Source of the DNA: Deltaproteobacteria bacterium
GTDB taxonomy: Bacteria > Desulfobacterota > GWC2-55-46 > JADFVP01
NCBI GenBank assembly: GCA_029262515.1
Contig: JAJCZH010000029.1
Span: forward strand, 1,434 to 65,433
Direction: 5' to 3'
Length of the DNA: 64,000 nt
Shown here: positions 4,577-18,919 of the stretch, piece by piece
Layout of the letters: the number at the start of each line of letters is the position of its first letter
How positions within the stretch are numbered: the first letter of the stretch is position 1
Translations under genes and position numbers: made by a program
Notes under the pieces: generated by a model
Told to the model about the DNA's origin: nothing
The model's input: the letters and a program-made list of their open reading frames with translations, nothing else
Databases searched by the model: none

Positions 4577-4693
4577 TCAACAGCAGTAACCGATACAGAC
4601 GAAACGCTCGATAATATCGAGGCTCGTGTTGATAAAGATCAGTGCGGTGATGATTATCATGAGCACAATAAGTAGATTAATATCTATCTTCAT
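4577..4693 (-). CDS. Small hydrophobic peptide (38 aa, 'MKIDINLLIVLMIIITALIFINTSLDIIERFVCIGYCC'), not in the ORF track
   Basis: Its ATG overlaps the stop of 4690..5016 as ATGA. It is a single transmembrane-like peptide. Confidence 0.3.
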   Translation of the reverse strand: MKIDINLLIVLMIIITALIFINTSLDIIERFVCIGYCC

Positions 4694-5016: not shown

Positions 5017-5651
5017 TCACCCCCTACTTTGACGTCTAAGTTTTTTAGATTGTTGTTAATCCCCTCGATTAACATGTCTACGTCACACAACTCATCCTCG
5101 AACAGCAGTTTCACAGCCTGCAGGACTCTTGCTCTGCAGCTCTCGGTGAGGGGTTCGAGAACCCCTAAAACAGTCTTGAACGGTTCAAGGGGGCTGTCGG
5201 GTGCAGGAGTAACAACAACGGGTGGTATAGGATCATCAAGCGGAGCCTTCCCCTCGGATATAGGCGTATACGTTCCGCCGGTCTTTTTTTCCTTCTCAAC
5301 CGGTTTCTTCTTGGCCTTTTTGGATTTATTCTTGTGGTAATACTCCTTATTGAGACAGGCACGGCACTTGCCCTTCGTGCGGTTGAACCCTGAGAGAGCT
5401 TTCGAGGCTGGCGTTTTACAAACCGAACACTCAGGCTCTTTAGGCTCTGCGGGCTTACCCTTCTGTCCGCGACATACCAGGGATGTACAGCCTTTGGTCT
5501 TCTTCAAGAGCCCGCAGGTCGGACACTCAGCATCACCCGGTTTTGGCTCCTTAGGGTGCATCTCTGCATCCTCGCAATTCATGCAGTAGCGACTATGCTC
5601 CAGTGAATACTTCTTGCACCCCTCTGTCGCACAGATATCTCCGTTAGCCAT
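5013..5651 (-). CDS. Cys-rich multi-zinc-finger protein (several CxxC pairs) with a Lys/Pro-rich linker
   Basis: 'CATEGC', 'CMNC', 'CPTC', 'CSVC', 'CRAC' and further Cys in the first ~120 aa, then a 'KKAKKKPVEKEKK' linker. Confidence 0.55.
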   Translation of the reverse strand: MANGDICATEGCKKYSLEHSRYCMNCEDAEMHPKEPKPGDAECPTCGLLKKTKGCTSLVCRGQKGKPAEPKEPECSVCKTPASKALSGFNRTKGKCRACLNKEYYHKNKSKKAKKKPVEKEKKTGGTYTPISEGKAPLDDPIPPVVVTPAPDSPLEPFKTVLGVLEPLTESCRARVLQAVKLLFEDELCDVDMLIEGINNNLKNLDVKVGGE

Positions 5652-5945
5652 TTATCCCCCCACTCCTGTTTGAACCGGCTTAACCGGCCCGGCGTGATCG
5701 CCCTTTTTAATCTCCGTAACGATCGCAAGCTTTTCCCTCAGTTCATCTATGTCCGGGTTTGCCGCCTCGAAGTAGACGGCCCTCTCGACCTGGCACGTCT
5801 CGAGGCGCCCCCTGATTATTGCCATCTGGTACATTGCGTCCTCGTCGATCTCCGCGCGCTCAAGGTTGCGGCCGTGCCAGATACCGAACTGTATTGCCGC
5901 AATAAGCATGACCGGAAAAAGTATATAGACGGTTGCATTCTTCAT
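5652..5945 (-). CDS. Small membrane protein
   Basis: 97 aa with an N-terminal hydrophobic helix 'VYILFPVMLIAAIQFGIW'. Confidence 0.4.
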   Translation of the reverse strand: MKNATVYILFPVMLIAAIQFGIWHGRNLERAEIDEDAMYQMAIIRGRLETCQVERAVYFEAANPDIDELREKLAIVTEIKKGDHAGPVKPVQTGVGG

Positions 5946-6027
5946 GAGAAAACCCTCCGTAGCAGCAGCCCTACAAGCAGCATAAAACCTATGCAGAAAG
6001 ACTCGGCCAGTATGAGTTCGTGAAACT

Positions 6028-6702
6028 TCAAGAGGCTGCCTCCAGTACGCGCTTTACGCTGTTAGCGAACCACTCACCGCCCTTCTTTGTCGGGACATTG
6101 AACCTGTTCAGCTCGCGCGCAATTCCCTGATAACCGAAGTCTCTATCATCCATATCTATTATCTTGTCGATGATCTTCTGCTCTTCTTCATTCTCTACGA
6201 GCATGCCGTCGACAACATCGTATCCGTAAGATGCATGGTTATAGGCCACACCAGAGGCCTTCAGATAGGCAAGGGCGTCCGTGGTGCGCTCAGAGATGAG
6301 GTTGCGCTCCATCTCGGCACAGGCGGCCATAATCGTGAAGAAGAAGATACCCATTGCAGACTGGGTATCTATAGACTCTGTAACGGAGTGAAAGGCCACT
6401 TCGGCCTCGTTGAACTGACTTGCTGTATCGAGTGCGTCTTTAGCGTTACGGAAGAGGCGGTCGAGCTTATAGACTATAACGGCATCTATTACACCATGTA
6501 AGGCGGCGTCTATTACCGCATGCGCCCCGGGACGATTCTTTATATCCTTGCCAGAAATGCCCTCGTCTCGACAGATGTTTACCAGCTCCAGGTCGTGCAG
6601 CTCGGCGTAGGCCTTGATCTTCGCCTCCTGGTGGGCGATGCTGATGCCCTCCTTGGCCTGCTCCTCGGTCGAGACTCTTATATAACCGAAAGCCTTCTTC
6701 AT
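6028..6702 (-). CDS. Serine recombinase (resolvase/invertase family). ORF-track frame extends to 6750; the start is more likely 'MKKAFGYIRVS' at 6702.
   Basis: N-terminal 'GYIRVSTEEQ' catalytic-serine motif of resolvase-family recombinases. About 224 aa. Confidence 0.8.
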   Translation of the reverse strand: MKKAFGYIRVSTEEQAKEGISIAHQEAKIKAYAELHDLELVNICRDEGISGKDIKNRPGAHAVIDAALHGVIDAVIVYKLDRLFRNAKDALDTASQFNEAEVAFHSVTESIDTQSAMGIFFFTIMAACAEMERNLISERTTDALAYLKASGVAYNHASYGYDVVDGMLVENEEEQKIIDKIIDMDDRDFGYQGIARELNRFNVPTKKGGEWFANSVKRVLEAAS

Positions 6703-6956
6703 GCGCAGACCTCCTTCAGGTGAAGGTTCTTGTCGAGAGGGCGCCGGCAACGCCCGTTGTGCCGGTCCTTACCGCTGCCGCGCTTATGGGCCTTTGTGTA
6801 GTCTTCGATAATACGGCCGCACCTGTCGCATGTGGCCGGATGGACCGAAGTAATCTTGACGATAAAGACCACGCCGCACGGCTTGCAGATATAGTCGTTC
6901 TCCACACGGCCGTAACGCTTAACCCTTTTCGAATCGCAGACCGGGCAACGTCTCAT
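6699..6956 (-). CDS. Zinc-ribbon small protein
   Basis: 'CPVCDS...CKPCG...CDRCG' Cys pairs. Coupled to the recombinase gene. Confidence 0.45.
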   Translation of the reverse strand: MRRCPVCDSKRVKRYGRVENDYICKPCGVVFIVKITSVHPATCDRCGRIIEDYTKAHKRGSGKDRHNGRCRRPLDKNLHLKEVCA

Positions 6957-7414
6957 GCGCCTACTCCTGCACTGACAGAACTCATTGCAGCCCGTAGGTC
7001 GGCTTTAATGGTCGGCCTAAGAAAAGCATCAACCATATGAGAGAGAGTGGCAACCTTGGAGGGGTCTTCATCACGCGCTACCTTGAGGACCTTACCTACA
7101 AGGATCCCCTCGTCGGGGCTTAACTGCAGACCTGCCGAGGCGTGAGCGGCCGGAGCGGAAAGATCGACCGGCATATTCTCCGGCGGCGTTACGCCGTCGA
7201 GGTACATCTTGCCTTCACCGGTCAAGAGCCAGTCGACTGATAGACCTGTAAGCCTTGAGAGCTTAATCACCAGGCTGGGCGGTATCGAACCACGCTTCTT
7301 ATAATTCGACATCGCTTGAGGAGTAACCCCTAGTTTTCTGGCCAGCGCCGAGTCATTCTTTAAGTGGTTGCCCCAGCGCATCCGTTCTACTATCTCCGCA
7401 TAATTCTGTTCCAT
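6953..7414 (-). CDS. CI-like HTH transcriptional repressor (phage repressor N-terminal domain)
   Basis: 'SALARKLGVTPQAMSNYKKRGSIPPSLVIKLSRLTGLSVDWLLTGEG' is a typical CI/Cro-type HTH. Confidence 0.6.
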   Translation of the reverse strand: MEQNYAEIVERMRWGNHLKNDSALARKLGVTPQAMSNYKKRGSIPPSLVIKLSRLTGLSVDWLLTGEGKMYLDGVTPPENMPVDLSAPAAHASAGLQLSPDEGILVGKVLKVARDEDPSKVATLSHMVDAFLRPTIKADLRAAMSSVSAGVGA

Positions 7415-7416
7415 AT

Positions 7417-7605
7417 CTACCTCCCGCTTGGTAGCTCTATGTGGTTATCCCCGGACACCGTGTCCGGAGTATCTGAAAAAAGTATCTTCATCTGGCCGTC
7501 TTCAGGTGCGACGGCATTCAAGAGATCAGCCGGCCTTATCTCTCCGTTAAAAAGACTGTGTACGAGTTCTCTACATGTAACCTGGTCGGTGTTCCTCACG
7601 CTCAA
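7417..7605 (-). CDS. Hypothetical small protein
   Basis: 62 aa ORF coupled to neighbouring genes. Confidence 0.3.
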   Translation of the reverse strand: MSVRNTDQVTCRELVHSLFNGEIRPADLLNAVAPEDGQMKILFSDTPDTVSGDNHIELPSGR

Positions 7606-7781
7606 GTCCTCGACCTCTTCAGCCTCTTCTTCCTGTATGCCTTTATAGCCGCTTCGGTAAAGTGTGCCGGGCGGCCCGGAATGTAGGCTATTTCCCTTGC
7701 GGACATTTTGTTCCGAAGGGTTGACGGCTTCAGCCCTAAAAGCTCAGCAGCTTCGAATGTTGTGTACAGTTTTTCAATCAT
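7602..7781 (-). CDS. Excisionase/AlpA-like HTH DNA-binding protein. ORF-track frame extends to 7841; the start 'MIEKLYTT' at 7781 is more likely.
   Basis: 'LYTTFEAAELLGLKPSTLRNKM...' resembles MerR-type excisionase HTHs. Its ATG overlaps the upstream stop as ATGA. Confidence 0.5.
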   Translation of the reverse strand: MIEKLYTTFEAAELLGLKPSTLRNKMSAREIAYIPGRPAHFTEAAIKAYRKKRLKRSRT

Positions 7782-8296
7782 CTGACCCTCTCTCCAATAA
7801 CTGCGAGCAGCCCCATAACGGCCTGTACTGCCTCCATACACTCTTTGCTGAGCTCCTTGAGCTCGGCCTTCGACACCTTGTTATCCTTGAGAACCTCGGC
7901 CAGCTTCTGGCTCGTCTCCCCGAACTCCTTGTTGTAGGTGAGAATCGCCTGCATCAACTCTTTGTCGGATGTATTGCTTGCCGGCATCTTCACCGGCGGC
8001 ATAAAACCGAAACGGGCGCATAGCCATTCAATTGGCACGTACGCCCTGTCGGGGTCGATCTTTGCAATTGTAGTTATTATGGTTTCAAGACGGTCGAGGG
8101 GATTACGGGCCCCGGACTGGTCGGGGTCGTCAATAGTTGAAGGAGGTGAGCACCACATACGGACGAGCCTACCGGAGAGATGAAGGTCATCAGCAACGAT
8201 CGTCGTATGCCGCCTTATAGTCTCATCAAGCGCCTCAAAAGATTTCCAGTACGCAAGCCCTTCTTTACTCATTGCCGATCCCCGCTTAATCTGCAA
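7778..8296 (-). CDS. Hypothetical protein
   Basis: 172 aa ORF at the head of the leftward transcription unit. Confidence 0.5.
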   Translation of the reverse strand: MQIKRGSAMSKEGLAYWKSFEALDETIRRHTTIVADDLHLSGRLVRMWCSPPSTIDDPDQSGARNPLDRLETIITTIAKIDPDRAYVPIEWLCARFGFMPPVKMPASNTSDKELMQAILTYNKEFGETSQKLAEVLKDNKVSKAELKELSKECMEAVQAVMGLLAVIGERVR

Positions 8297-8387
8297 TTGT
8301 CAGTTGCGCGGCCCTCTGCTACGATTTAGCATGGCCACCTATTTACAACCTACATGGAACCTGATAAACTCAAACTCTAAAAGAGCG

Positions 8388-8432
8388 CAGACAGGCCCGA
8401 ATAAATCTGCCCGATCTCATCGGGCCCGTCTG
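8388..8432. promoter_or_regulatory. Imperfect 13-bp inverted repeat (cagacAggcccga...tcgggcccgtctg) in a divergent intergenic region. Possible operator or structured RNA.
   Basis: 12 of 13 positions are complementary with a 19-nt spacer. Located between divergent gene starts at 8296 and 8535. Confidence 0.3.
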
Positions 8433-8534
8433 CTGGTATCGAGCACCGATCGCGTCGGTAGGTGGGGCCTGCGACCGCCACCGGGCTCAATTCGTTTAAA
8501 AACTTGTTCTGGATCTTCTATATATGGAAAGCTT

Positions 8535-8771
8535 ATGTCTCAAGATATTGAAGAGCCTTATCTTTTAAAATGTCCTAAGTGCTATACTTCGCGTTCAGGG
8601 ACAGGGTGGTCGTCAATAGATGAAAAGCGTCCCTATTGCGCAGGTTGTGGCACACGTTGGATAGCAAAATGTCCCGGTTGCGGTATATTAATCGATCCAA
8701 CATTTCACTCGAAGAAGACTGAAAAAAACTGTGTATCTTGCGGCACATCGTTCTCAGCCACGCCTACCTGA
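8535..8771 (+). CDS. Small zinc-ribbon protein. ORF-track frame 8304..8771; the likely start is 'MSQDIEEPY' at 8535.
   Basis: 'CPKCYT...CAGCGTRW...CPGCG...CVSCG' shows four CxxC pairs. Confidence 0.35.
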   Translation: MSQDIEEPYLLKCPKCYTSRSGTGWSSIDEKRPYCAGCGTRWIAKCPGCGILIDPTFHSKKTEKNCVSCGTSFSATPT

Positions 8772-8922
8772 GTTTATAGGCGCAACAAGGGGCAAACTTA
8801 GCATCAGGATCGTTCCGAAAAATCTCTTTAATTTCTTCAGGGAACTCCATGCTACAGTTTGGGCACTTATCAGGCAGTACGAACATGGCTGTTTTGTTAT
8901 TTTTAAAGTTTTCATTATTCAT
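8764..8922 (-). CDS. Small Cys-containing protein (52 aa, 'MNNENFKNNKTAMFVLPDKCPNCSMEFPEEIKEIFRNDPDAKFAPCCAYKLR'), not in the ORF track
   Basis: Its ATG overlaps the stop of 8922..9182 (TGATG). Confidence 0.3.
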   Translation of the reverse strand: MNNENFKNNKTAMFVLPDKCPNCSMEFPEEIKEIFRNDPDAKFAPCCAYKLR

Positions 8923-9182
8923 CACAGACCTTTTGTTTGATGTGTCGGAGCACCCTGAGCTTCTGAATTTGAAGCATCCAGGAGATTACGCAGTCGCTCC
9001 ACAGAAGGGTTCGGAATAACTACGTGTCTGTGTAGCTTATTGTCCCAAACTCTTAACAAGGTGCCGTCTTGGCATATTGAATCGATAAGCTCCTGTGAAG
9101 ATAAGTCTTCACGGAACCGGTCAAGATCAATAATTTGAATGTTTACTGAGATTTTTTTGTAATGACGTTTTGGTTTACTCAT
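8922..9182 (-). CDS. Hypothetical small protein in the cro position, divergent from the S24 repressor
   Basis: 86 aa ORF. Transcribed divergently from 9272..9898 across an AT-rich 90-bp region. Confidence 0.45.
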   Translation of the reverse strand: MSKPKRHYKKISVNIQIIDLDRFREDLSSQELIDSICQDGTLLRVWDNKLHRHVVIPNPSVERLRNLLDASNSEAQGAPTHQTKGL

Positions 9183-9271
9183 CGCAGGCCCCTTTATTTG
9201 ATGTGTATGGGTAGATATTAGAAGTATTTTTCTAATTTGTCAAGCATATATATAAATTATATTCTATTATT
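9183..9271. promoter_or_regulatory. AT-rich divergent promoter/operator region (cI/cro-like switch)
   Basis: A 'tatatataaattatattctattatt' tract between divergent regulator genes. Confidence 0.4.
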
Positions 9272-9898
9272 ATGAGCACAATCGGTCAAAGACTTAAAAA
9301 TACTAGAAAAAAAATTCTACAAATTTCGCGTGAGAAGTTTGTAGAAGGGCTTTCTATTTCCACAAAAACCCTTGAAAACTACGAAAACGACGGCACCTCT
9401 CCGGATGCCAACTTCTTCACCCTGCTTTGGGGGAAGTACCACGATCAGCTAAGCATGAGCGACCTCGACTGGATTATGTGGGGCAAGCGCATGGAGTACG
9501 AAGTCGCAACAACAACCCCGGTTCTGGGGCGTGTGCCTGCTGGCTTTCCGGAAAACATAGCCGAAGAGGATATACTCGAGTACATAAGCATGCCCGGAGC
9601 GCCGAAGGAGGCCTACTCGCTCATCATCGACGGTAACAGCATGGCCCCCGATATTAAAGACGGCGACTATGTCATTTTTTTGCCTGCAGAGCGCACCAGT
9701 ACAAACCCCGGCGACATAGTCGTCATCAACGACGAGTTCGGGCAATCTATGATAAAGCGCTATGTCCTGAAAGATGGTCAGCCGTACTTGAAAAGCGACA
9801 ACCCCGAGTACCCAGGCTTCGAACCAAATGAACATTACACGGTAATTGGTAAGGTTATTGATGTGTGGAGCAGAAAGAAAATAAGGAGCGCACCGTGA
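9272..9898 (+). CDS. LexA/CI-like repressor with an N-terminal HTH and a C-terminal S24 peptidase domain
   Basis: 'IDGNSMAPDI' is the catalytic Ser motif and 'MIKRYV' carries the catalytic Lys. HTH at the N-terminus. Confidence 0.75.
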   Translation: MSTIGQRLKNTRKKILQISREKFVEGLSISTKTLENYENDGTSPDANFFTLLWGKYHDQLSMSDLDWIMWGKRMEYEVATTTPVLGRVPAGFPENIAEEDILEYISMPGAPKEAYSLIIDGNSMAPDIKDGDYVIFLPAERTSTNPGDIVVINDEFGQSMIKRYVLKDGQPYLKSDNPEYPGFEPNEHYTVIGKVIDVWSRKKIRSAP

Positions 9899-10710
9899 AG
9901 AAGTTGATAATACTGCTATTCGTTCTGGCTCTGCCCGCAATGGCTGAAGCAGCATCCTATAACAAGGCATCGATGTACAACCAACATGGCTTAAGTGCTG
10001 AAGCCAAAAAGGAACTCATCAACCTGATCTACAGCAAGACTACTACTGTCGAAAAAGCAAAGGCACATTATCTTCTAGGCACCATCGCTTTTAATGAAAA
10101 TAATGTAAGAGTTGCACTCAAAACTTGGAAAGACCTTGTCCGCAAGTACCCGAACTCCCAAGAAGCTACCTTAGTTAAAGACCGCATTAAAGAACTGTCA
10201 GATATCGTAGGTGATATTAAAGCCGATACCCTTAAAAACGCTCTGGCACAGACATATTTACGACATGGAGACTTTTGGACCAAGAATAAAGCGAGCAGGT
10301 TTACTATTGACTCAAGCTGGCTACCAAAAGTTGAAATGGCGTTAAAGTGGTACGATAAGGTGATTGCTAAATTCCCAAAAACAGACGCTGCCCGCGTTGC
10401 ATATGAGTCGAAGCTAATGACCTTGCTGGGATGGAAAGATAGAGGACGTAATGCAACTTCATACGGCGTAAGAAAGAGCCTGACAGAATATATGCCTCAA
10501 TTACTCGAAACTTTCGCGGCATTTGAAAAAGACCACCCGGATGCCTCCTCTCTTCAGGCTTATCGTTATCAGATCGCACAAGCGTATTGGGACAATAAAG
10601 ACTGGGATAAAACACGTGAATGGTTAAACACGGTTATAACAAAGGCGGGTGATGCAGATAGCTTTTACAAGGACGCAGCACAAAGACGCCTTGAAAAAGT
10701 CGTGTATTAG
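9895..10710 (+). CDS. Secreted TPR-like repeat protein. GTG start overlaps the upstream stop; the ORF-track frame begins at 9865.
   Basis: Signal peptide 'KKLIILLFVLALPAMAEA'. Helical-repeat composition with 'AKAHYLLGTIAF...' and 'AQAYWDNKDWDKTREWL'. Confidence 0.55.
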   Translation: MKKLIILLFVLALPAMAEAASYNKASMYNQHGLSAEAKKELINLIYSKTTTVEKAKAHYLLGTIAFNENNVRVALKTWKDLVRKYPNSQEATLVKDRIKELSDIVGDIKADTLKNALAQTYLRHGDFWTKNKASRFTIDSSWLPKVEMALKWYDKVIAKFPKTDAARVAYESKLMTLLGWKDRGRNATSYGVRKSLTEYMPQLLETFAAFEKDHPDASSLQAYRYQIAQAYWDNKDWDKTREWLNTVITKAGDADSFYKDAAQRRLEKVVY

Positions 10711-10816
10711 CGCTGTTGAAGGAGATCTTTAATACTTCTGTACCATCGAGGCTGGTGACATGAGTATTGTTAATTTTATAAAATTGAAATAAAGAATATA
10801 AAAGGGAGGCACGTAC

Positions 10817-11230
10817 ATGCTCACCATCTTTGTATTATGGGTCGTACTCGCTGTCGTCGCTGGGATTGTCGCTAATAACAAGAACCGTAGCTCGGTAATT
10901 TGGGCCCTTCTCTGCTTCTTTCTCACCCCAATTCTGCTGCTTATACTCTTGGCCTTACCGAAGCTCGAACCCAAGGCGCCGCATCAAACCGGTAAGCTCA
11001 CGAGAAGGCAAGCATCGTCAGTCACACCTGCACCGATAATGGACGACCCGGGCGAGACTCGTAAATGCCCTTTCTGCGCCGAACAGATACTGGCCGAAGC
11101 GATAATCTGCAAGCATTGTGGCAAAGAGAGCAAGATAGAAAAAGTAGCAGAGAAGTGCTCACGCTGCGGCATCGAGGTACTTGAGGGAGCATCTGAATGT
11201 TTCAACGGTCACTCACAGGACTACTCCTGA
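10817..11230 (+). CDS. Membrane protein with a C-terminal zinc ribbon
   Basis: Two TM segments, then 'CPFCAEQ...CKHCG...CSRCG'. Strong RBS 'aagggagg' upstream. Confidence 0.5.
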   Translation: MLTIFVLWVVLAVVAGIVANNKNRSSVIWALLCFFLTPILLLILLALPKLEPKAPHQTGKLTRRQASSVTPAPIMDDPGETRKCPFCAEQILAEAIICKHCGKESKIEKVAEKCSRCGIEVLEGASECFNGHSQDYS

Positions 11231-11616
11231 TAGGGTTGCTCATTGCAGGGGGGACAGTTTTTGCCATATTGACACAGGGCGCAATTAACGCTTTCGCCGC
11301 GACCATGCACCCTGAGAAGACCTACCAGACCGCATGGTGTGACGAGCATAAAGGGGAAATGGAGTACGTCGTCTCTGGCGGATCCCGGGTTGATTGCCTG
11401 ACCGAGAAGTATGCTGTTGAGGTTGACTTTGCGCATAAGTGGCAAGAGGCGATCGGCCAGGCTCTATACTATGCGCGAAAGACCGACCGGGCCCCGGGCA
11501 TAGTTCTCATTATGGAAAAATCGGGCGACCACAAGTATCTCGGGCGGCTCTTCTATACCATCAAAGAACGAGATGAATTTATAAAGGTCTGGACCATCGG
11601 ACCAGGGGATCTATGA
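11197..11616 (+). CDS. Hypothetical exported/membrane-anchored protein
   Basis: N-terminal hydrophobic helix. Its 3' end 'KVWTIGPGDL*' is repeated as a scar at 12725-12761. Confidence 0.5.
   Translation: MFQRSLTGLLLIGLLIAGGTVFAILTQGAINAFAATMHPEKTYQTAWCDEHKGEMEYVVSGGSRVDCLTEKYAVEVDFAHKWQEAIGQALYYARKTDRAPGIVLIMEKSGDHKYLGRLFYTIKERDEFIKVWTIGPGDL
11578..11616 (+). repeat. Junction repeat copy A: 'ataaaggtctggaccatcggaccaggggatctatga', followed by the vestigial start 'atgagcattaaataa' (MSIK*) of the zinc-ribbon gene
   Basis: Near-identical to 12725-12764. The 'ggatctatga' junction recurs at 13721-13730, and a similar 'ggggagcctatgag' precedes zinc-ribbon copy 1 (12401-12420). Confidence 0.5.
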
Positions 11617-11626
11617 GCATTAAATA

Positions 11627-12112
11627 ATGCCAGTGTCTCTGGCAGTGAAAGGAGCGAGGGATTTGAAGAAGCTATTGATTCTTATAGGTGTGATATTTTT
11701 TATGGGGTGTGCGGCTGCACCTGTTCAACGCGCTGAACCTAAAACAATGGAGTTTCAGCAGCCTTTTGATAAGGTCTGGAGTGCCGCCGTCAGGATCATC
11801 ACTGTCGACAACGACCTGCCTATCCAGGTAATAGAAAAAGATTCCGGAATTATTACCACCGATTGGGTTACTTATGAACGCCCTGTTAAAGGCATGGGTG
11901 AGGCCTTCATGATATCCAGCTCAAATACTACTAACCCGAACATTCAGATACGTTACAAATTGAATATTAGTATTGAGAAGACCGACAACGGAACAGAGGT
12001 TTATATCCGCGATCATGTAGAGCGGTTCAGTGGTATGACTTGGAGTGTTACTAATGAACGCCCCCCGGCTCTTGAGAATATCGCGGCGGACCTGGCGGCT
12101 AGACTAAAATAG
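11627..12112 (+). CDS. Putative lipoprotein. Alternative TTG start at 11663 with RBS 'gaaaggag'.
   Basis: 'LLILIGVIFFMGC' is a lipobox-like signal peptide. Confidence 0.5.
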   Translation: MPVSLAVKGARDLKKLLILIGVIFFMGCAAAPVQRAEPKTMEFQQPFDKVWSAAVRIITVDNDLPIQVIEKDSGIITTDWVTYERPVKGMGEAFMISSSNTTNPNIQIRYKLNISIEKTDNGTEVYIRDHVERFSGMTWSVTNERPPALENIAADLAARLK

Positions 12113-12123
12113 GAGATGGACCT

Positions 12124-12399
12124 TTGGCTCTTATACAATGTCCCGAATGCAATAAAGATATCTCTGACCAAGCGGTAGCCTGCCCCCAATGCGCCCACCC
12201 AATAAAAGCCGTAACCATTGAGGCGACCGGAAAGCGATGGAAGGGTATACAGCTTATCTGTGCCCTATTTATTATAATCGGCGCTTTCTGGGCAGCGAGC
12301 AATACTCAGGGGGGGCCAGCGTTCGGTGGTATTCTTGTAGCGGTGGGGCTTATCGGTTTTATAGTAGCCCGACTGGGCGCATGGTGGGGGCACGGTTGA
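12124..12399 (+). CDS. Zinc-ribbon membrane protein (TTG start)
   Basis: 'CPECNK...CPQCAHP' then two TM helices. RBS 'aggag' 8 nt upstream. Confidence 0.45.
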   Translation: MALIQCPECNKDISDQAVACPQCAHPIKAVTIEATGKRWKGIQLICALFIIIGAFWAASNTQGGPAFGGILVAVGLIGFIVARLGAWWGHG

Positions 12400-12414
12400 T
12401 ATTATGGGGAGCCT

Positions 12415-12564
12415 ATGAGTATTAAAACCATAGACCTGACCCTCAAATGCCCGTCGTGCTCTCACGAGTGGACTGAGCACCTCGAAGTTGGAGAGATTCT
12501 CTTACGTCCACCGTGCCCGAAGTGTACCGACCAGCCAGTTTATATGCTGAAGATTAAAGCTTGA
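12415..12564 (+). CDS. Small zinc-ribbon protein, paralog copy 1 (49 aa, MSIKTIDLTLKCPSCSHEW...CPKCTDQPVYMLKIKA); not in the ORF track
   Basis: CxxC-x17-CxxC. Has two paralogs at 13727 and 15504 (about 70-80% nt identity by eye). Confidence 0.5.
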   Translation: MSIKTIDLTLKCPSCSHEWTEHLEVGEILLRPPCPKCTDQPVYMLKIKA

Positions 12565-12628
12565 GGCCGCCGATGAGACGCCTCCTTATAACAATAAAGG
12601 CAGTAACCATGCTTAGGGAGCTCAGAAC

Positions 12629-12733
12629 ATGAAGAGGTTGCTGGTCTTATTTTTTGTTCTGACTCTGCCCGCACTGGTTGTGGCCGGCGATTCTCCCGTT
12701 ATTAAGCGTTCAATCTTTGGACTCTACCTATAA
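12629..12733 (+). pseudogene. Truncated remnant (34 codons) of a secreted-protein gene paralogous to the 5' end of 9895..10710
   Basis: 'atgaagaggttgctggtcttattttttgttctgactctgcccgca' is homologous to 'gtgaagaagttgataatactgctattcgttctggctctgcccgca'. The ORF stops inside the junction repeat. Confidence 0.4.
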
Positions 12734-12764
12734 AGGTCTGGACTATCACCCGTGAGGATCTATG
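12725..12764 (+). repeat. Junction repeat copy B: 'ataaaggtctggactatcacccgtgaggatctatga', with the ATG now used by the 300-aa cargo gene
   Basis: Matches the 3' end of 11197..11616 plus the zinc-ribbon start context. Confidence 0.5.
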
Positions 12765-13664
12765 AAATCTATAAATGATCTAAATAGACAACTCGTACAG
12801 ATTAAACAAATTTTTCTTCATGGAAAGAAGCATGCTATTAGTAACAACGCCCTCGACAGGCTTCACTCTATAATTTCTTTAGATACAGCTATAGAATACT
12901 TCCTTGTTACTATCATCCACCAAGCTGATATAAAATTACCCCGCAAGGATGAGAACAACTTTGATTCAATCTTCGAAAACGCAAATATAGGGCTTAAAAA
13001 AATTAGAAATAATTCCATCGAACTACCCCATAAAACCGTCATTACAAGTAGAGTACATAAAGTACGAAACGGAGCTTGTCACAGCGGCAATATACCTAGC
13101 ACTGAAAGCATCAATACAGCCTTAATCCACACCGAAACATTTCTTAATGAAACCTTCAAGCTTTGCTTCAATAAGGCTTTTGGTGAGGTTTTTCTTGCCG
13201 ACATGATTGAGCACCAAGAAATCTGCAAGTATTTCAAAAAGGCAGAAGTAGCCATGGAAGAGAATGATCTTGAAAGTTTAACTGTTGAACTCGCAACTGG
13301 CATCCAAATTTTTAAGAATAAAGTCACCTCAGAACTACCAGGCTGGCTAAAGCAAATGGAAAGAACAGACGTCTCCACCACACTTGATGATAACCAAAGG
13401 ATACAAACTGCTCTGGGAGACATAGTAGAGTCGGTTTGCCTCCTTCGAAATTTTACAGTTTTCATTAGCCTTGGATTTACATTCCACGATTTGACACTTT
13501 TTATAGCAAAATTCCCAATTATTAATTTGAGTGTTAGCGGTAATATTCTTGGTGTACATCACGGCCGCATAAAACCCACTATGAGTGAGTGCGTTCACCT
13601 CATGAATGCCTTTTACAACATGATACTTTCATATCAGTCCAGCAATAAATCTATATGCCCATAG
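12762..13664 (+). CDS. AT-rich cargo gene 1: hypothetical 300-aa protein with a candidate HEPN-type Rx4H motif ('RNGACH'). Putative Abi-like RNase.
   Basis: Low-GC coding sequence. 'VHKVRNGACHSGNIP' at about residue 100 fits the R-[N]-x3-H HEPN signature. No other motif recognized. Confidence 0.5.
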   Translation: MKSINDLNRQLVQIKQIFLHGKKHAISNNALDRLHSIISLDTAIEYFLVTIIHQADIKLPRKDENNFDSIFENANIGLKKIRNNSIELPHKTVITSRVHKVRNGACHSGNIPSTESINTALIHTETFLNETFKLCFNKAFGEVFLADMIEHQEICKYFKKAEVAMEENDLESLTVELATGIQIFKNKVTSELPGWLKQMERTDVSTTLDDNQRIQTALGDIVESVCLLRNFTVFISLGFTFHDLTLFIAKFPIINLSVSGNILGVHHGRIKPTMSECVHLMNAFYNMILSYQSSNKSICP

Positions 13665-13726
13665 AAGATAATCAAAGAAACCTAGGCTTACCTCATGTAT
13701 CGAAACACTTTCATCCCTGAGGATCT

Positions 13727-13876
13727 ATGAAAGCCAAAACCATCGACCTGAACCTTAAATGCCCGGCCTGCTCTCACGAGTGGGCGGAGCGCCTCGATAC
13801 CGAGGGCGTATACCTCAACCCCGTCTGCCCGGAGTGTACCGAGCAGCCGGTCTACATTCTAAACATTACGGTCTAA
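13727..13876 (+). CDS. Small zinc-ribbon protein, paralog copy 2 (49 aa, MKAKTIDLNLKCPACSHEW...CPECTEQPVYILNITV); not in the ORF track
   Basis: Preceded by the 'cctgaggatctATG' junction. Its 3' half is nearly identical to copy 3. Confidence 0.5.
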   Translation: MKAKTIDLNLKCPACSHEWAERLDTEGVYLNPVCPECTEQPVYILNITV

Positions 13877-13970
13877 ACCAAGGTTTCAATCCAAGTAGGT
13901 TGCGAATAAGTGTTGTGTTAGAGGACACGTCGCATTGTATTCAAGGCACACTAGAAATCAAACGAGGTGA

Positions 13971-15431
13971 TTGATGGAATATTTTAAGCTTGGAGACATA
14001 TTTTTAGGTTTGAATGACGGAAAGAAGGAGGCATTAATTAGAAGTGATTTTGAAAGATTTTTTTATGATCATGAAAACATTCATGATCAAGTTATGAAGC
14101 CTCAAAATTTTTTGATCCTAGGTAAAAAGGGTTCTGGGAAAACAATTTTGGCTGAATATATAAATAAAACTTCTAAAAAGGATCCGCTGTGGTTCAGCGA
14201 GATAAGATCTTATAAAGATTTTAAATTTCATGAATTAGTCCAACTAAAAAGCGATGATATCAAACCTAATGAATATATTTCAATATGGGAATGGGTAATT
14301 CTATTAGATTTGGCAAGGCTTATACTACAAGATCAAGGTATCGACAATGTTGAGCTACGCAATAAATTAGAAAGTTTTTATACAAATAATTATTATTCAA
14401 TTGATATTGACTCTGGAAGGGTTGTTGAAATTACCAAAGAAAACCAAATAACTGGTACCATTCCAACTTCAATCGTAAATTTATCAGCGGGGCATGCCTC
14501 TAAATCAACAAAAGTTTCTGGAAGTTATTTTAATTATTTAGAAGGTTTGAGAGAAGTTGTGCTTGGCTTGCTAGAAGGATCGAGCAGTAAATACACCGTT
14601 TTTTATGATGAACTAGATGATCGCTTTAGAGATAATGAGTTTTATAAAGATGGTATTATCAGTTTGATAAAAGCAGCTGATAAGGTTAATTTGGAACTAC
14701 TGAGAAGAAATGTCGATGCCAAAATATCAATTTTGCTAAGGTCGGACATTTTCTACATACTTAATGACCCCGATCTTAATAAGATAAAAATGGATAATTC
14801 CTTGGTAATCGATTGGGGTAATATTGTGTCACAACAATCTCCTCTTTTTAAGTTGATTCTATCAAAGATCAGGACGTCTCTACCAGCCATAGAAAAGAAA
14901 AGTGATGATCAACTTTTTTCTTTATTGTTCCCTCAAGGAATTAAAGGTATTGATCCCGAGAGGTATATACTTGAAAGGACTCTCTTCCGCCCTCGGGATG
15001 TAATAACAATGTTGAACCTAATAATAAAAAAATATCCGAAGACTGGTTATTTTGGCTGGAAGGGTTTTATAGATATTAAGAAAGCTTATTCAGAGTATTT
15101 TTTTCAAGAAATAAGGAATGAGTTGTGTGGACATTTGAGCGATAAAGAAATAGATCAATCAACATTAATGATTAAACAATATAATAAGCACTTTTTTTAT
15201 TTTGATGAAATCAAGGAGTACCACAAGAAAAATATCGCAATCTATCCAGATATAAATTTAGAGAAAATTTTAAGATTATTTTTCAAATTTAATATAATAG
15301 GAAATACGTGGTTCAACAAATATAAAAATAGAAACTACTATTGTTGGGCTTATCGGGATAATAAGGCGGAAGTCGACTTTAAGAAGAAGTTTGTCATTCA
15401 TCTAGGCTTAAGAGAAGAGCTATCACTATAA
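13971..15431 (+). CDS. AT-rich cargo gene 2: KAP-family-like P-loop NTPase (putative defense/abortive-infection ATPase)
   Basis: Walker A 'LGKKGSGKT' near residue 52. Walker B 'VFYDELDD' about 160 aa later, which is the long A-B spacing typical of KAP NTPases. 'FRPRDVITMLNLI' resembles the KAP 'PRxIKRxxN' motif. Very low GC. Confidence 0.6.
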   Translation: MMEYFKLGDIFLGLNDGKKEALIRSDFERFFYDHENIHDQVMKPQNFLILGKKGSGKTILAEYINKTSKKDPLWFSEIRSYKDFKFHELVQLKSDDIKPNEYISIWEWVILLDLARLILQDQGIDNVELRNKLESFYTNNYYSIDIDSGRVVEITKENQITGTIPTSIVNLSAGHASKSTKVSGSYFNYLEGLREVVLGLLEGSSSKYTVFYDELDDRFRDNEFYKDGIISLIKAADKVNLELLRRNVDAKISILLRSDIFYILNDPDLNKIKMDNSLVIDWGNIVSQQSPLFKLILSKIRTSLPAIEKKSDDQLFSLLFPQGIKGIDPERYILERTLFRPRDVITMLNLIIKKYPKTGYFGWKGFIDIKKAYSEYFFQEIRNELCGHLSDKEIDQSTLMIKQYNKHFFYFDEIKEYHKKNIAIYPDINLEKILRLFFKFNIIGNTWFNKYKNRNYYCWAYRDNKAEVDFKKKFVIHLGLREELSL

Positions 15432-15503
15432 ACCCTCATTAGTAACGCTGTGATGGCCTGCCGTACAGCTCTTCATTCGGGCGGCCATCTACCCAAGGAA
15501 TTT

Positions 15504-15647
15504 ATGAAGACCATCGACCTGACCCTAAAATACCCGAAGTGCTCTCACGAGTGGATAGTGCGCCTCGATGCCGAGGAGGTCTACCTCAACCCCGTCTGTC
15601 CAGAGTGTACCGAGCAGCCGGTCCTTATCCTTAACATCACGGTCTAA
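15504..15647 (+). CDS. Small zinc-ribbon protein, paralog copy 3 (47 aa, MKTIDLTLKYPKCSHEW...CPECTEQPVLILNITV). The first Cys is replaced by Tyr.
   Basis: Inside ORF-track entry 15450..15647. Homologous to copies 1 and 2. Confidence 0.45.
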   Translation: MKTIDLTLKYPKCSHEWIVRLDAEEVYLNPVCPECTEQPVLILNITV

Positions 15648-15751
15648 GCCAGAGAACAGCATTCAAACCTCATTATCCAAATTTAGCATGATCAAGAGTA
15701 CTTCCTGTAGTCCGCACATTCCAACCACGCTTCCACATGCAACACTTCTAC

Positions 15752-15796
15752 CGGAAATAAACAAAGCCCACCAGTCATTACGACCAGTGGGCTTCA
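15752..15796 (-). terminator. Hairpin ('aagcccac'/'gtgggctt', 8-bp stem) with a T-rich tail on the minus strand. Likely terminator for the PEP-CTERM gene.
   Basis: Lies between convergent genes. The minus-strand read gives a stem-loop then 'tttgtttatttcc'. Confidence 0.35.
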
Positions 15797-15817
15797 AAAC
15801 CTTCTGATTTAAAACTC

Positions 15818-16471
15818 TTACTTCTTAAACCTTCTTCTCACAAACCCAAGACCTGCAAGGCCACTTCCGAGAAGGAGGAGGGTTGAGGGTTCTGGGACTG
15901 AGGCAAGAGTAATCGTAGCATCAACTGCCGTCCATCCGTGTTCGGTGTTACCTCCGTTATTTGTAAGCAGAAAGTCAACATGGTTCCCCGCAACTAGATC
16001 AAGGTTGAGCAGAGAGAAAGATGCTGTATCCAAATAGGTAGTAATGTAATCGCTAAACACAACTACACCGTTGATGGCGACATAAACGCGGTTATTAACG
16101 CTTCGGTTGTCAGTCCCAGTGAAAGCTCCTGTCACGTCATAGTTACCCGCCGTTGAAGCGGTCCAGCGCACCACTGGAAAACCATTCGAATTGTCTTTCG
16201 CCCACAAATGCGGACCATAAACAGCCCACTGGTCTGCAATACTCGGACCACCGTGCCCGTAGTTGCCCAGAAACCAACCGTCTGACCAACGTACGTTCAT
16301 AACATCTATCGTGCTAGCAGTCACGGTGGTCGTTCTTCCATAAGTCCAGTCGCCATTTGGGTTGGTAGTAGTCGAGTAGTCGCCTGAGATTGAGGCGGCG
16401 TTTGCGCTCTGAGCCAGAGTAAATCCGAAACAGAGTACCAGGGTTAAAATAGCGATATACATTTTTTTCAT
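15818..16471 (-). CDS. PEP-CTERM sorting-domain secreted protein
   Basis: N-terminal signal peptide. C-terminal 'VPEPSTLLLLGSGLAGLGFVRRRFKK' is the canonical PEP-CTERM exosortase signal (PEP motif, TM helix, Arg cluster). Confidence 0.7.
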   Translation of the reverse strand: MKKMYIAILTLVLCFGFTLAQSANAASISGDYSTTTNPNGDWTYGRTTTVTASTIDVMNVRWSDGWFLGNYGHGGPSIADQWAVYGPHLWAKDNSNGFPVVRWTASTAGNYDVTGAFTGTDNRSVNNRVYVAINGVVVFSDYITTYLDTASFSLLNLDLVAGNHVDFLLTNNGGNTEHGWTAVDATITLASVPEPSTLLLLGSGLAGLGFVRRRFKK

Positions 16472-16849
16472 AATATTCTCCTAAACATCGAATTATATAC
16501 TTATATTAAATTGTACTTGATGGGTTACTTAATTAAAAATGCAAGATGCATGCCACTACCTCTTCGCTGCCGTAACCATCTGTTTTGCTTACTAAAGAGC
16601 GTTAGGTGGCGAACTTAGTGGTTCTATATGGGGCAACAAAGTGTAAAGAAACATAACGAGCGAAATTACATAAAGAGCACAGTTCTCAAATAAGACCTTA
16701 TACTCCAGCAGGTTATGGAGTTTTCAATATGTGTAAAAATATTTGACAATGCTGGAAGAATTTACATAAAAGAGGCTTGTTAGATAGATAAGGAAGCGAT
16801 CGTGCAATATTTCTTTTGGTAATCATGTAGATTGAGCCTACCCTTAAAG

Positions 16850-16874
16850 TGCGTAGTAGTAGGTGTACTACGCA
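16850..16874. promoter_or_regulatory. Perfect 9-bp stem hairpin (tgcgtagta-gtaggtg-tactacgca) about 55 nt downstream of the integrase stop
   Basis: Read directly from the sequence. No T-tail follows, so it may be an operator or arm-type site rather than a terminator. Confidence 0.25.
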
Positions 16875-16928
16875 TCTTACACCCATCCTACAGCAAGCAC
16901 TTCCTACTGATCATGCCCCACCTACCCT

Positions 16929-17993
16929 TCACAGCAAATTGATCTCGTCATGCGTCTCTTCTATCGGTATATGAGCGTAATGCTTTGTCGTTACATCCAC
17001 GCTTGAATGGCCGAGGTACTGGCTCACAAGATAGATGGATACTCCCCTCCGGAGAAGGTGGCTACCGAAAGTCTCACGAAACGTCTGTATGGTGAGCCCC
17101 TCAACATCAATTCCGGCAACCTTGCCTATGGTCTTCAACTTACGGTTCAGGTTATTAGCTCTCGGATCCCCGTCTTTTGTAGGAAAGCACCACTTGCTAT
17201 CAGAATCCATTGCCAGGAACAGCTCACGCAGCTCCCTGTGCAGTGGAATCTTCCTCTCCTGATGATCCTTGATCTCATTCTCTTCTTTGCTCCGTACCAG
17301 CAGGTAGCCCTCATCGAAGTTAATGTCTCTCGGCTCCAGGTGTATTAACTCCCCGAACCTCAGGCCGGCGTAGTAAGCTGTGGCGAAGAGCGGGTAAAAG
17401 TCGGGATCCCGCTTCTTGATTGTTTTGAGCAAGGTGCTTATGTCTTTTAATGAAAGGTCCCTGAAGAGCTTCTTTGTAGGCTTGTCTGCCCGGACTTCCT
17501 TCGCAGGGTTGTCCGGTATATAACCCCTCTTCATGGCATAGCCCAGCACGGCCCTTAACGCCCTCAGGTCTGCACGCGCGCCGCCCGGGGTTTTCTTTCG
17601 TGCTTTTCCACCTTCTTTCTTGGCTCTACTATAAAAGCCCTCTTTTCTCTTATTGTAAAAGATCTCTACGGTATCGATATCTATTTCGGATATAAGCTCG
17701 ATACCCTCGTCTTCACAGAAATCAACAAAGATGCGCTTGCGCGTCCGGTACCATCGTTTTGTCGCTTCTCGAGGCGCTCGCTTCTCAATATATGCATCAA
17801 AAACCTCAGCGACCGACTTTTTTAATATGAGATGTTTGGACCGGTGCTTCTGTCTGCCCTCGAGTTCCTCGTAGTCCCGCAATAGGGCCGAAGCTGCGGC
17901 CTTTGCCGTTACCCTCAAAGATTTCTGAGCAGACACGCCGCCGTCCACATAGCCGACCCACCAGATTTTACCGCGCTTATAGATGTAAGCCAT
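16929..17993 (-). CDS. Tyrosine site-specific integrase (phage integrase family)
   Basis: C-terminal catalytic region '...HLLRRGVSIYLVSQYLGHSSVDVTTKHYAHI' carries the R...H-x-x-R...Y pattern. It lies directly next to the tRNA gene. Confidence 0.85.
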   Translation of the reverse strand: MAYIYKRGKIWWVGYVDGGVSAQKSLRVTAKAAASALLRDYEELEGRQKHRSKHLILKKSVAEVFDAYIEKRAPREATKRWYRTRKRIFVDFCEDEGIELISEIDIDTVEIFYNKRKEGFYSRAKKEGGKARKKTPGGARADLRALRAVLGYAMKRGYIPDNPAKEVRADKPTKKLFRDLSLKDISTLLKTIKKRDPDFYPLFATAYYAGLRFGELIHLEPRDINFDEGYLLVRSKEENEIKDHQERKIPLHRELRELFLAMDSDSKWCFPTKDGDPRANNLNRKLKTIGKVAGIDVEGLTIQTFRETFGSHLLRRGVSIYLVSQYLGHSSVDVTTKHYAHIPIEETHDEINLL

Positions 17994-18140
17994 AAATGTA
18001 AGTCTATTGTAAGTTAGAAAGTGAAACTAAATGAGATTGAGTGAAGTATAGTGAACTTACAGAGAAAAGTCAAGAGGGGTGCTTAATGTAAAAACCCCTT
18101 GATAATACTAAAAAATTAGCATTACCAAGGGGTTATATTA

Positions 18141-18217
18141 TGGCTCCCGGGGAGGGATTCGAACCCCCGACAAGGTGATTAACAGTCACCCGCTCTGCCA
18201 GCTGAGCTACCCGGGAA
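18141..18217 (-). tRNA. tRNA-Asn (anticodon GTT)
   Basis: Reverse complement 'TCCCGGGTAGCTCAGCTGGCAGAGCGGGTGACTGTTAATCACC...GGTTCGAATCCCTCCCCGGGAGCCA'. 7-bp acceptor stem, anticodon loop 'CTGTTAA', T-loop 'GGTTCGAATCC', 3' CCA. Confidence 0.8.
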
Positions 18218-18394
18218 TAGCAAGCAATAGGCTAAAATGTTAAGGAGACATATTATACTTACGAGTACTTCAAGTCAAGAATTTTATAGCACCTTTACGA
18301 AGCATCGTTAGAGTATCGGTTGCAAAGAGAGGGGACTTGATGCCATTTCCGCTCTTTTTTCCAGACTCGTCACGCCCTCTTATACTGCCAAACC

Positions 18395-18919
18395 CTATTT
18401 CCAGATTCCGACCCCGGCCTGCTTCGCTTTATCCTCCAGACCTAGCAGCTCTTCTCGTTTCTCCGTGCCGCATGGCGGTATCAAGAGCGTTTTCGCAAAG
18501 CCCTCTTCGAGCAATAGCCCGTTAACGAAAAATCCGTCCACATAGACCCAGCCGAGTGTCCTTCCGTACTTGTCCTTCGGCTCCCCTCTACAGACTCGCA
18601 ACTCGATCTCTTTACCCTTTACAAGCTCGGCATTTCTCTCTCTTGCGGCCTCATATAACGGCTCGCCGCGCTCAGGCGTATCTATTCCTATATACCTTAC
18701 TATCAGACCGCCGGAGGTCCTTACGGTATCGCCATCATATACAAAAGCCACGGTCTGCTTACCGCCCTCTTCGGGTTTCATCGCCGTGGCCATGCCCTCT
18801 GCCAGATCGAAAGGCGCTGCAACAAAGAGCGTAACAAACAGCACAAACGTACCCATAACGATTGCAAAGAGCGCTCTACTCCCACGGATTCTTCTTATCA
18901 TAAATATAATTGGAAGCAC
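18395..18919 (-). CDS. Thermonuclease (staphylococcal nuclease, SNase-like) family protein with an N-terminal membrane anchor
   Basis: 'VYDGDTV...YIGIDTPE' matches the SNase catalytic core. Confidence 0.7.
   Translation of the reverse strand: MLPIIFMIRRIRGSRALFAIVMGTFVLFVTLFVAAPFDLAEGMATAMKPEEGGKQTVAFVYDGDTVRTSGGLIVRYIGIDTPERGEPLYEAARERNAELVKGKEIELRVCRGEPKDKYGRTLGWVYVDGFFVNGLLLEEGFAKTLLIPPCGTEKREELLGLEDKAKQAGVGIWK

Follow-up and report, generated by a model that had tools for sequence, protein, structure and literature searches.

Com of phage Mu and the Ogr/Delta proteins of P2/P4 are single zinc-binding proteins of about 60-70 amino acids (aa) encoded by temperate phages. The gene for Com lies directly upstream of a potentially toxic gene that Com activates translationally. 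In lambdoid phages, mosaicism is of the 'boundary sequence' kind. Hotspots for defence and moron genes of the P2/P4 type have been described in temperate phages and satellites (PMC9122126, PMC13586616), and the way in which defence cassettes pass between the hotspots of mobile elements is an open question (PMC13586616). The present analysis concerns a stretch of 64,000 nucleotides (nt) from a Deltaproteobacteria bacterium (GenBank assembly GCA_029262515.1, contig JAJCZH010000029.1, positions 1,434 to 65,433 of the forward strand), hereafter the window. Within an integrated phage-like element, it contains an array in which a mini-gene for a protein of 47-49 aa, predicted to be a zinc ribbon, occurs three times. 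The locus preserves this small conserved gene, in diverged copies and in fragments, bracketing compositionally foreign, defence-like genes. It is somewhat probable that the array was assembled by recombination among related elements at the mini-gene, in an element integrated at tRNA-Asn, the copies being translated alleles. The three complete copies are the following:

12415..12564, plus strand: mini-gene copy 1, 49 aa, subtype A (...EILLRPPCPKC...KIKA), with GGGGAG 3 nt 5' of the ATG
13727..13876, plus strand: mini-gene copy 2, 49 aa, subtype B, with GAGGA 3 nt 5' of the ATG
15504..15647, plus strand: mini-gene copy 3, 47 aa, subtype B, with the replacement C12Y and AAGGA 4 nt 5' of the ATG

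A preliminary description of this DNA, made from the letters alone, had proposed three paralogous open reading frames (ORFs) of this size. They are intact and real, with the start of copy 3 corrected to the ATG at 15504, which gives 47 aa. All three ATGs are preceded at 3-4 nt by a purine-rich run resembling a Shine-Dalgarno sequence. Reading copy 3 as a 65-aa ORF from the GTG at 15450 was rejected: that start is without a Shine-Dalgarno-like sequence, and a stop codon breaks the extension in the homologue of locus L007, which belongs to another metagenome. Amino-acid identity among the copies is 59-83% (to copy 2, 59% for copy 1 and 81-83% for copy 3). At the DNA level, the repeat measures 145 nt and coincides with the ORF, copy 1 being 69% and copy 3 83% identical to copy 2. 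Within the window, tblastn connects the copies at E values of 1e-15 to 1e-22, a similarity far beyond chance. The two CxxC knuckles are separated by 18 residues, not by the 17 that had been reported. In the same way, the 3' half of copies 2 and 3, previously called almost identical, merits that term in the protein (2 differences in 24 residues) but not in the DNA, where 9 of 69 nt differ, as do 14 of 72 nt in the 5' half. An exact look-up in a public protein collection returned copy 2 and found neither copy 1 nor copy 3, which are probably unannotated.

Repeats are classic misassembly sites, and at the borders of the repeats in this array the GC content changes in sharp steps from 0.5 to 0.3. 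A chimeric join in a metagenome-assembled contig might have produced the low-GC cassettes and the repeated mini-genes. This is very improbable: the copies differ by 16-32%, too much for assembler confusion, and fragments A and B, found at the junctions of the array, are each internally coherent. Moreover, an independently assembled Logan contig of 4043 nt (L038) is 100% identical to window positions 12062-16104 and covers all three copies, which makes misassembly unlikely.

The mini-gene is judged to be protein-coding and under purifying selection from the pattern of its substitutions, namely an excess of third-position differences and a frame-specific dN/dS (ratio of nonsynonymous to synonymous substitution rates), together with the persistence of the ORF in distant members. 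By the Nei-Gojobori method, dN/dS in the coding frame is 0.25 for copies 1 and 2, 0.22 for copies 1 and 3 and 0.28 for copies 2 and 3, and the differences at codon positions 1/2/3 number 9/11/22, 8/14/23 and 4/7/12, respectively. None of the five alternative frames is open throughout the three copies; four have stops in every copy, and the two alternative forward frames give pN/pS (the corresponding ratio of proportions) of 0.8-2.1. When the window copies are compared with the genes of L007 and of L022, a locus of another metagenome, dN/dS ranges from 0.08 to 0.36. Distant members of about 40% identity keep the ORF, the four cysteines and the E-W pair where the DNA is unalignable. The earlier proposal that the copies are translated is therefore supported, in so far as they are protein-coding, by the frame-specific substitution, and the three signs named beforehand as speaking against a gene, dN/dS near 1, frameshifts and a lack of homologues, were looked for and none was found. 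The coding status and divergence of the copies are in this respect direct readings of the alignments.

The contrary proposal would be that the repeats are a structured RNA, a repeat element or a regulatory site in which the ORFs are incidental. The units are short and repeated and have a conserved leader in which the internal motif ACCATNGACC recurs; in addition, copy 2 folds slightly better than shuffled sequence (z-score -2.1). Nevertheless, folding z-scores of the units run from +0.4 to -2.1 (either strand, RNA parameters), are inconsistent among copies and reveal no common hairpin, and an Rfam scan of 9000-18500 gave no match except the tRNA. Set against these, the third-position excess and the Cys/Trp motif kept at 40% identity have already largely refuted a non-coding reading, which is scarcely credible.

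Synonymous divergence separates copy 1 from the two others, with dS (synonymous substitutions per synonymous site) of 1.05-1.26 against copies 2 and 3 and of 0.45 between these two. In DNA, copy 1 matches copies 2 and 3 at about 70% of positions, and its nearest relative is the 47-aa gene of L022, as seen from an amino-acid signature and a dN of 0.13. Most likely, then, these alignments reflect two old subtypes, A (copy 1, with L022) and B (copies 2 and 3). Between copies 2 and 3 the DNA identity is 83.7%, and these two copies and the L007 gene are about equidistant (82-84% at the nt level; 84% for copy 2 with L007). The mini-gene locus is single-copy in L007, L008 and L009, all from another metagenome, and every locus outside the window carries one mini-gene copy. 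The unit around copy 3 extends beyond the ORF:

15461..15666, plus strand: complete mini unit with a leader of about 43 nt, the ORF and a trailer of about 19 nt; by blastn 82% identical over 206 nt to L007 9960-10163, L008 and L009

Since leader and trailer are common to copy 3 and the single-copy L007 locus, copy 3 can be regarded as the positional orthologue of the L007 gene. A short direct repeat, ACAGC(N)TTCA, is present at both ends of the copy 3 and L007 units and was judged not significant.

These relationships bear on an alternative that is considered unlikely, in which the array arose locally by tandem duplication, each mini-protein serves the adjoining cargo gene as adaptor, antitoxin or regulator, and copy 3 is decaying. 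The values of dS and the equidistance to L007 argue against recent local duplication, and the flanks of copy 3 match those of L007. The earlier idea that copies 2 and 3 stem from recent duplication or gene conversion thus loses its ground, and on these comparisons a recent tandem duplication is most likely not the origin of the copies. As to gene conversion between copies 2 and 3, all 9 of 9 copy-2-specific substitutions fall within the first 72 nt, which might faintly hint at mosaicism, 141 nt giving little power.

The supposed decay of copy 3 can be judged from the same alignments. In its favor, copy 3 has no same-strand gene downstream and, as had been noticed, has lost its first zinc ligand: a single transition (TGC to TAC) replaced Cys12, which is kept in 10 of 10 other family members, by Tyr. 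Its other lineage-specific replacements are T20I, E21V and Y43L. Changes other than C12Y occur in other members (E21V in P0005, Y43L in P0008), T20I being unique but conservative, and dN/dS against the positional orthologue in L007 is 0.18. With C12Y as the one aberrant change, general decay does not describe copy 3. It is a normal member that suffered one very recent, probably damaging change, and it would be either newly inactivated or working with three cysteines.

The anatomy of the junctions, which can be read directly from the DNA, ties the gene blocks of the array to the mini-gene. Five features are involved:

11197..11616, plus strand: 139-aa signal-peptide protein, whose C-terminus recurs as a vestige upstream of copy 2, copy 3, the L022 gene and fragment B
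11580..11624, plus strand: fragment A, leader plus the first four codons ATG AGC ATT AAA TAA (MSIK, then stop), ending the intact 139-aa gene
11627..12399, plus strand: block of two genes lying between fragment A and copy 1, for a BamC-like lipoprotein of 161 aa and a zinc-ribbon membrane protein of 91 aa
12629..12733, plus strand: remnant 34-aa ORF, corresponding to the 5' signal-peptide part of a second tetratricopeptide-repeat (TPR) lipoprotein gene; 12630-12680 is 75% identical over 51 nt to 9896-9946
12729..12773, plus strand: fragment B, leader plus the first four codons ATG AAA TCT ATA (MKSI), from which the 300-aa ORF has its ribosome-binding site and start

Translated in the frame whose TGA overlaps the mini-gene ATG (ATGA), the leaders end in FIKVWTIGPGDL (the true end of the 139-aa protein), PIKVWTITREDL, NTFIPEDL, LFIRAAIYPRNL and LIQKTIDPEDL, each followed by the stop; in L007 this leader occurs with its frame broken. 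These translations point to an ancestral pair in which a 139-aa-like gene was probably the upstream neighbor of the mini-gene and translationally coupled to it through ATGA. No relative of the 139-aa protein was found in viral contigs. After fragment A come the 161-aa and 91-aa genes, and next copy 1, which itself starts with MSIK. The L022 mini-gene starts with MKSIDL behind the same leader as fragment B. The remnant is joined 48 nt downstream to the leader of fragment B (12681-12728 being without detected homology); its tblastn match lies at 9895-9954, and it appears to be the relic of a largely deleted second module. A mini-gene start is present at every block junction, the two truncated fragments included, and direct repeats that contain it bracket each block: about 21 nt around the 161/91 block (GGGGATC-TATGAGCATTAAA / GGGGAGCCTATGAGTATTAAA), 33 nt with 27/33 identities for the 300-aa gene and, for the ATPase gene, whole units.

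Of note, the leaders at 15480-15525, L007 9975-10020 and L022 3555-3605 contain the imperfect ORF-start motif ACCATNGAYC about 25 nt upstream of its second copy, and it encodes T-I-D/G in both places. The leader copy could have been left by a short duplication or could serve as a binding site. The resemblance to a 20-nt motif at 17900-17919 (75%), within the integrase gene, was attributed to chance and does not count as a fourth 'copy'.

From this anatomy the recombination history of the array may be inferred. In the ancestral state, the mini-gene would have been coupled to the gene of the 139-aa secreted protein through the overlapping ATGA stop/start. Gene blocks from related elements would then have been joined by recombination in or beside the short conserved mini-gene, these being the 161-aa and 91-aa pair and two defence-like genes of low GC, those of the Rx4H protein and of the Fun(Z)-like ATPase. 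As a result, subtypes A and B would have been brought together, and the mini-gene or its first 4-8 codons would have been left at every block junction. The mini-gene may in this manner act as portable homology that allows cassettes to be exchanged. One cargo gene, that of the 300-aa protein, takes over the ribosome-binding site and start codons of a ribbon mini-gene. The two low-GC cargo genes are:

12762..13664, plus strand: cargo 1, 300-aa all-alpha protein, GC 0.37, with conserved R102-NGAC-H107 (Rx4H, HEPN-like)
13974..15431, plus strand: cargo 2, P-loop ATPase of 485 aa from the Sll1717 family, GC 0.31

The mini-genes, by comparison, have a GC content of 0.49-0.56. HEPN ribonucleases are characterized by an Rx4-6H motif within a four-helix HEPN fold. 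The 300-aa protein gave no family match at E <= 0.01 in Pfam, PADLOC, NCBIfam or PHROGs, HEPN included, and its AlphaFold2 model is poor, with a predicted local distance difference test score (pLDDT) of 48. A single homologue of 61% identity was found in 5.8 billion clusters and keeps the Rx4H motif; a lipoprotein gene and no mini-gene lies downstream of it, and its 5' side is off the contig end.

The identity of cargo 2 is firmer. It matches NCBIfam NF047389 at 1.6e-87 (294.5 bits, for a cut-off of 75) and phrog_13260 at 3e-76. BLASTP aligns it end to end with Fun(Z) of phage P2 (residues 34-485 and 33-522, 20% identity over 503 aa, pairwise E 4e-10). By this similarity it belongs to the Sll1717 family of ATPases and is distantly homologous to Fun(Z), for which the P2 record annotates lysogenic conversion and a block of T5 growth. 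This links an uncharacterised family (NF047389, phrog_13260) to a classical exclusion gene. PADLOC offered for the ATPase a mad8 match alone, which was insignificant. RefSeq labels the homologues on Bacillus plasmids 'FunZ', and a literature search found nothing on 'Sll1717' and nothing relevant on 'FunZ'. Homologues of the ATPase were also seen on 101 plasmid records. Bacillus accounts for 84, among them plasmids of about 94.7 kb from B. anthracis.

That the mini-protein is the partner of its neighboring cargo was the other component of the tandem-duplication alternative and had been suggested in the preliminary description. It gains some plausibility from copy 2, which lies 97 nt upstream of the ATPase ATG, from several homologues with a same-strand gene 58-110 nt further on and from the resemblance of the cargo genes to potentially toxic defence genes. 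On the contrary, Fun(Z)-like homologues occur without an adjoining zinc-ribbon mini-ORF in two phages: in the Klebsiella P2-like phage Kp4865-2 the gene sits alone in an orf30-type gap, and in the Lactococcus phage CAP it follows the lysin gene. Beside the Fun(Z)-like gene of one Bacillus plasmid that was examined, none is annotated. Moreover, the genes downstream of mini-gene homologues are unrelated to one another. A toxin-antitoxin or two-gene defence system, for which the two genes should co-occur, was rejected, as cargo homologues are found without the mini-gene and mini-gene homologues without these cargo genes. The cargo genes thus appear to be independently mobile, defence-like morons and not obligate partners of the mini-protein.

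The surroundings of the array identify it directly as part of a mobile element:

9272..9898, plus strand: CI/LexA-like repressor (helix-turn-helix plus S24 peptidase; phrog_4, 5.7e-29), heading the same-strand gene string that ends with copy 3
15762..15796, minus strand: 16-bp hairpin terminator of the convergent PEP-CTERM gene, closing the gene string after copy 3
16929..17993, minus strand: tyrosine integrase, not an integron integrase (TIGR02249, 47.4 bits for a cut-off of 265)
18141..18216, minus strand: tRNA-Asn(GTT), integration site adjoining the integrase

All genes from the repressor through copy 3 are on the plus strand, and a simple scan found no plus-strand terminator-like site between 9272 and 15647. 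Phage-like genes recognized from their translations, among them those for a primase-like protein and a serine recombinase, fill positions 1-9000. A second att (attachment) copy of the tRNA-Asn is not in the window. With a CI-like repressor, an integrase and the tRNA-Asn around it, the array lies in the lysogeny-side accessory ('moron') region of an integrated phage-like element.

Other genes of this element were also recorded. The repressor gene is followed, at 9865-12399, by genes of the same orientation. Their products are a TPR lipoprotein, the 139-aa signal-peptide protein, the 161-aa BamC-like lipoprotein and two zinc-ribbon proteins anchored in the membrane (of 137 and 91 aa), an envelope-directed set of a type found in superinfection-exclusion modules. 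A gene with a PEP-CTERM sorting signal (15818-16471, minus strand) lies inside the element between copy 3 and the integrase and implies an exosortase-bearing Gram-negative host. A small serine recombinase is encoded at 6028-6750 on the minus strand. The element is unusually rich in zinc-ribbon ORFs, with further multi-CxxC proteins at 5013-5651, 6699-6956 and 8304-8771.

The regularity of the junctions calls for comparison with a site-specific process. The 5' end of the mini-gene could be a dedicated attachment site into which a site-specific recombinase inserts promoterless cassettes, as on an integron-like platform, but this is rather improbable. The recombinase in question could be the serine recombinase at 6028-6750, the element's own tyrosine integrase or some factor supplied in trans. 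It is equally doubtful that the mini-gene start (leader, ATG and at least 4 codons) has served as an insertion site that serially captured promoterless defence cassettes and duplicated the mini-gene each time; in such a process, the mini-protein might be an accessory factor for cassette recombination. What speaks for insertion at a fixed site is that direct repeats including the mini-gene start (about 21 nt, 33 nt and at least 145 nt) bracket all three blocks, that two independent truncations occurred after codon 4, that a unit of about 210 nt with similar ends recurs in three unrelated contexts and that the genes share a single orientation with no plus-strand terminator-like site inside the array (simple scan). 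Nevertheless, the repeats vary in length and are only 81-84% identical, the unit has neither an attC-like palindrome nor a stable single-strand fold, and one array is known, all other loci being single-copy. The integrase is not IntI and adjoins a tRNA like an ordinary phage integrase. Identity with an integron was accordingly rejected, the integrase scoring only 29 bits for a cut-off of 435 with PRK15417 in addition to its low TIGR02249 score, and attC being absent.

The loci that carry mini-gene homologues elsewhere are varied. The adjoining genes encode a PAS hybrid kinase, a TPR protein, a ribbon-helix-helix (RHH) protein and a tRNA-Leu, which are mutually unrelated. In a small element with Prim-Pol, AAA_25, AlpA and integrase genes, seen in L010 (1393-1776) and L011 (2142-2525), the mini-gene follows a 58-aa RHH gene, a two-gene order typical of regulators or antitoxins. 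L014 presents the order lipoprotein, mini-gene, TPR protein. In L024, the mini-gene of a distant member (735-881) lies 240 nt upstream of a tRNA-Leu(CAG) gene (1124-1210), which suggests the edge of another integrated element.

IS3 fragments adjoin the L007 mini-gene, and 6 kb away lies a homologue of the second CI-type repressor of the window; this homologue is encoded at 6953-7414 and is 42% identical to the window protein. In the same locus, a 97-nt stretch (9569-9665), about 340 nt upstream of the mini-gene and beside the IS3 remnants, is 76.5% identical to window positions 2992-3088. On these matches, L007 may hold a decayed relative of the same element.

The family to which the mini-protein belongs is new and very rare, with about 11 members, the three of the window included, and here it is found within an ordinary prophage accessory/defence hotspot. 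A word-indexed search with copy 2 alone returned itself as the sole match. Among 1.84 billion cluster representatives, an exhaustive search with HMMER brought up three true relatives along with proteins of DUF4379 repeats, a profile search of 5.8 billion clusters yielded two further members and a JGI metagenome scan three more. In scans of GTDB genomes, IMG/VR and JGI metagenomes, L022, L023 and L024 proved to be real family members, and most other matches were discarded as spurious resemblances in CxxC only. No family member was found in the collections of isolate phages and plasmids.

Among known families, Pfam DUF4379 (PF14311), a 'probable treble-clef zinc finger' with the motif C-x2-C-[SG]-H-E-W ... 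C-P-x-C, is the best Pfam match for all three copies. The scores (23.9 bits for copy 2, 20.9 for copy 1 and 17.1 for copy 3) lie below the gathering threshold of 24.5 bits, as all known-family matches of the copies lie below theirs. The copies do have the two CxxC knuckles with a conserved aromatic stretch (H/W-E-W) after the first that mark this family. C15, E18, W19, C34 and C37 are invariant in the alignment of the mini-protein family, and C12 is present in all but copy 3. P0002 carries a precomputed weak DUF4379 match, and P0003, with five DUF4379-like repeats, is the next match in the exhaustive search. In contrast to DUF4379 proteins, each copy is a single free-standing unit that measures 47-49 aa, has a conserved additional strand (QPVYIL) at its C-terminus and is not a set of repeats fused to an enzyme domain. 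They are thus borderline, with a related fold and motif but not certified members. The literature on 'DUF4379' consists of passing mentions in unrelated papers.

Other small zinc proteins were also considered. The HVO_0758 family, anti-TRAP (RtpA) and the C-terminal zinc domain of HypA resemble the mini-protein in size and in their CxxC...CxxC zinc ribbon, but the scores are far below the cut-offs: 17.6 bits for 70 (NCBIfam) and 17.3 for 27 (Pfam) with HVO_0758, and 20.9 for 65 with anti-TRAP. A HypA/HybF protein is full-length (about 113 aa) with an N-terminal nickel-binding domain. The match here covers profile positions 63-100 only (Pfam HypA 19-20.4 bits for 28.9; TIGR00100 16.6 for 88.1), and the JGI label 'HypA/HybF' on P0002 is an over-annotation, the nickel-binding N-domain being absent.

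Modelling with AlphaFold2 from an alignment of eight sequences predicted a three-stranded zinc ribbon (pLDDT 80.6) with strands at residues 5-11, 18-24 and 43-48, so that the mini-protein is predicted to be a single Cys4 zinc ribbon with two knuckles. In the PDB, the model matches the zinc-ribbon inserts of aRF1, MCM and eS27 at the level of fold only (template modelling score 0.5-0.67, E >= 0.37); sequence searches of the PDB were uninformative. Beyond the ligands, the surface positions S/G-H/W-E-W and Q-P-V-Y are strongly conserved, and some distant members have basic tails rich in Lys/Arg. From the bare zinc-ribbon fold, these surface positions and the basic tails, the activity of the protein may be inferred with low confidence, by analogy, as that of a small module with a binding or regulatory role, its target being nucleic acid or a protein of the element.

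Several points weigh against assembly by recombination at the mini-gene. No donor element with the same blocks was found, and the history is inferred from one array and its single-copy relatives. The family has only about 11 members, most of them on short contigs. The two truncations after codon 4 and the mini-start repeats around all three blocks fit a site-specific process better than homologous exchange at random. In addition, an old duplication in situ of a module comprising the TPR, 137-aa, 139-aa and mini-genes, followed by deletions, can also yield the remnant at 12629-12765. As for the regulatory role, it would follow, with low confidence, from fold, size, analogy and the basic tails of some distant members.

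Compared with described systems, the locus has features of several. Like the gene for Mu Com, copy 2 is a small zinc protein gene upstream of a potentially toxic gene, in this case that of the ATPase. Nevertheless, no family match links the mini-protein to Com or Ogr/Delta at E <= 0.01 in Pfam, NCBIfam or PHROG, and the downstream genes differ at every locus. Integron arrays likewise consist of unidirectional, apparently promoterless genes with a recurring element of 60-200 nt and a nearby tyrosine recombinase, but the recurring element of the window is a coding gene under purifying selection and has no attC-like hairpin. A further likeness is to the P2/P4 hotspots, where variable, compositionally foreign, defence-like genes occupy a fixed place near the integrase/repressor end, and the P2 lysogenic-conversion gene Fun(Z) is a homologue of one cargo of the window. 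In contrast to these hotspots, the conserved flanking gene is itself multiplied in the window, and the cassettes are stacked in series in place of one allele being replaced by another. A site-specific process behind the regular breakpoints would make the locus a new platform for cassette capture; failing that, it is instructive but ordinary prophage mosaicism. Taken as assembled by recombination at the mini-gene, it would be a modest new example of how accessory regions are put together and not a new kind of system.

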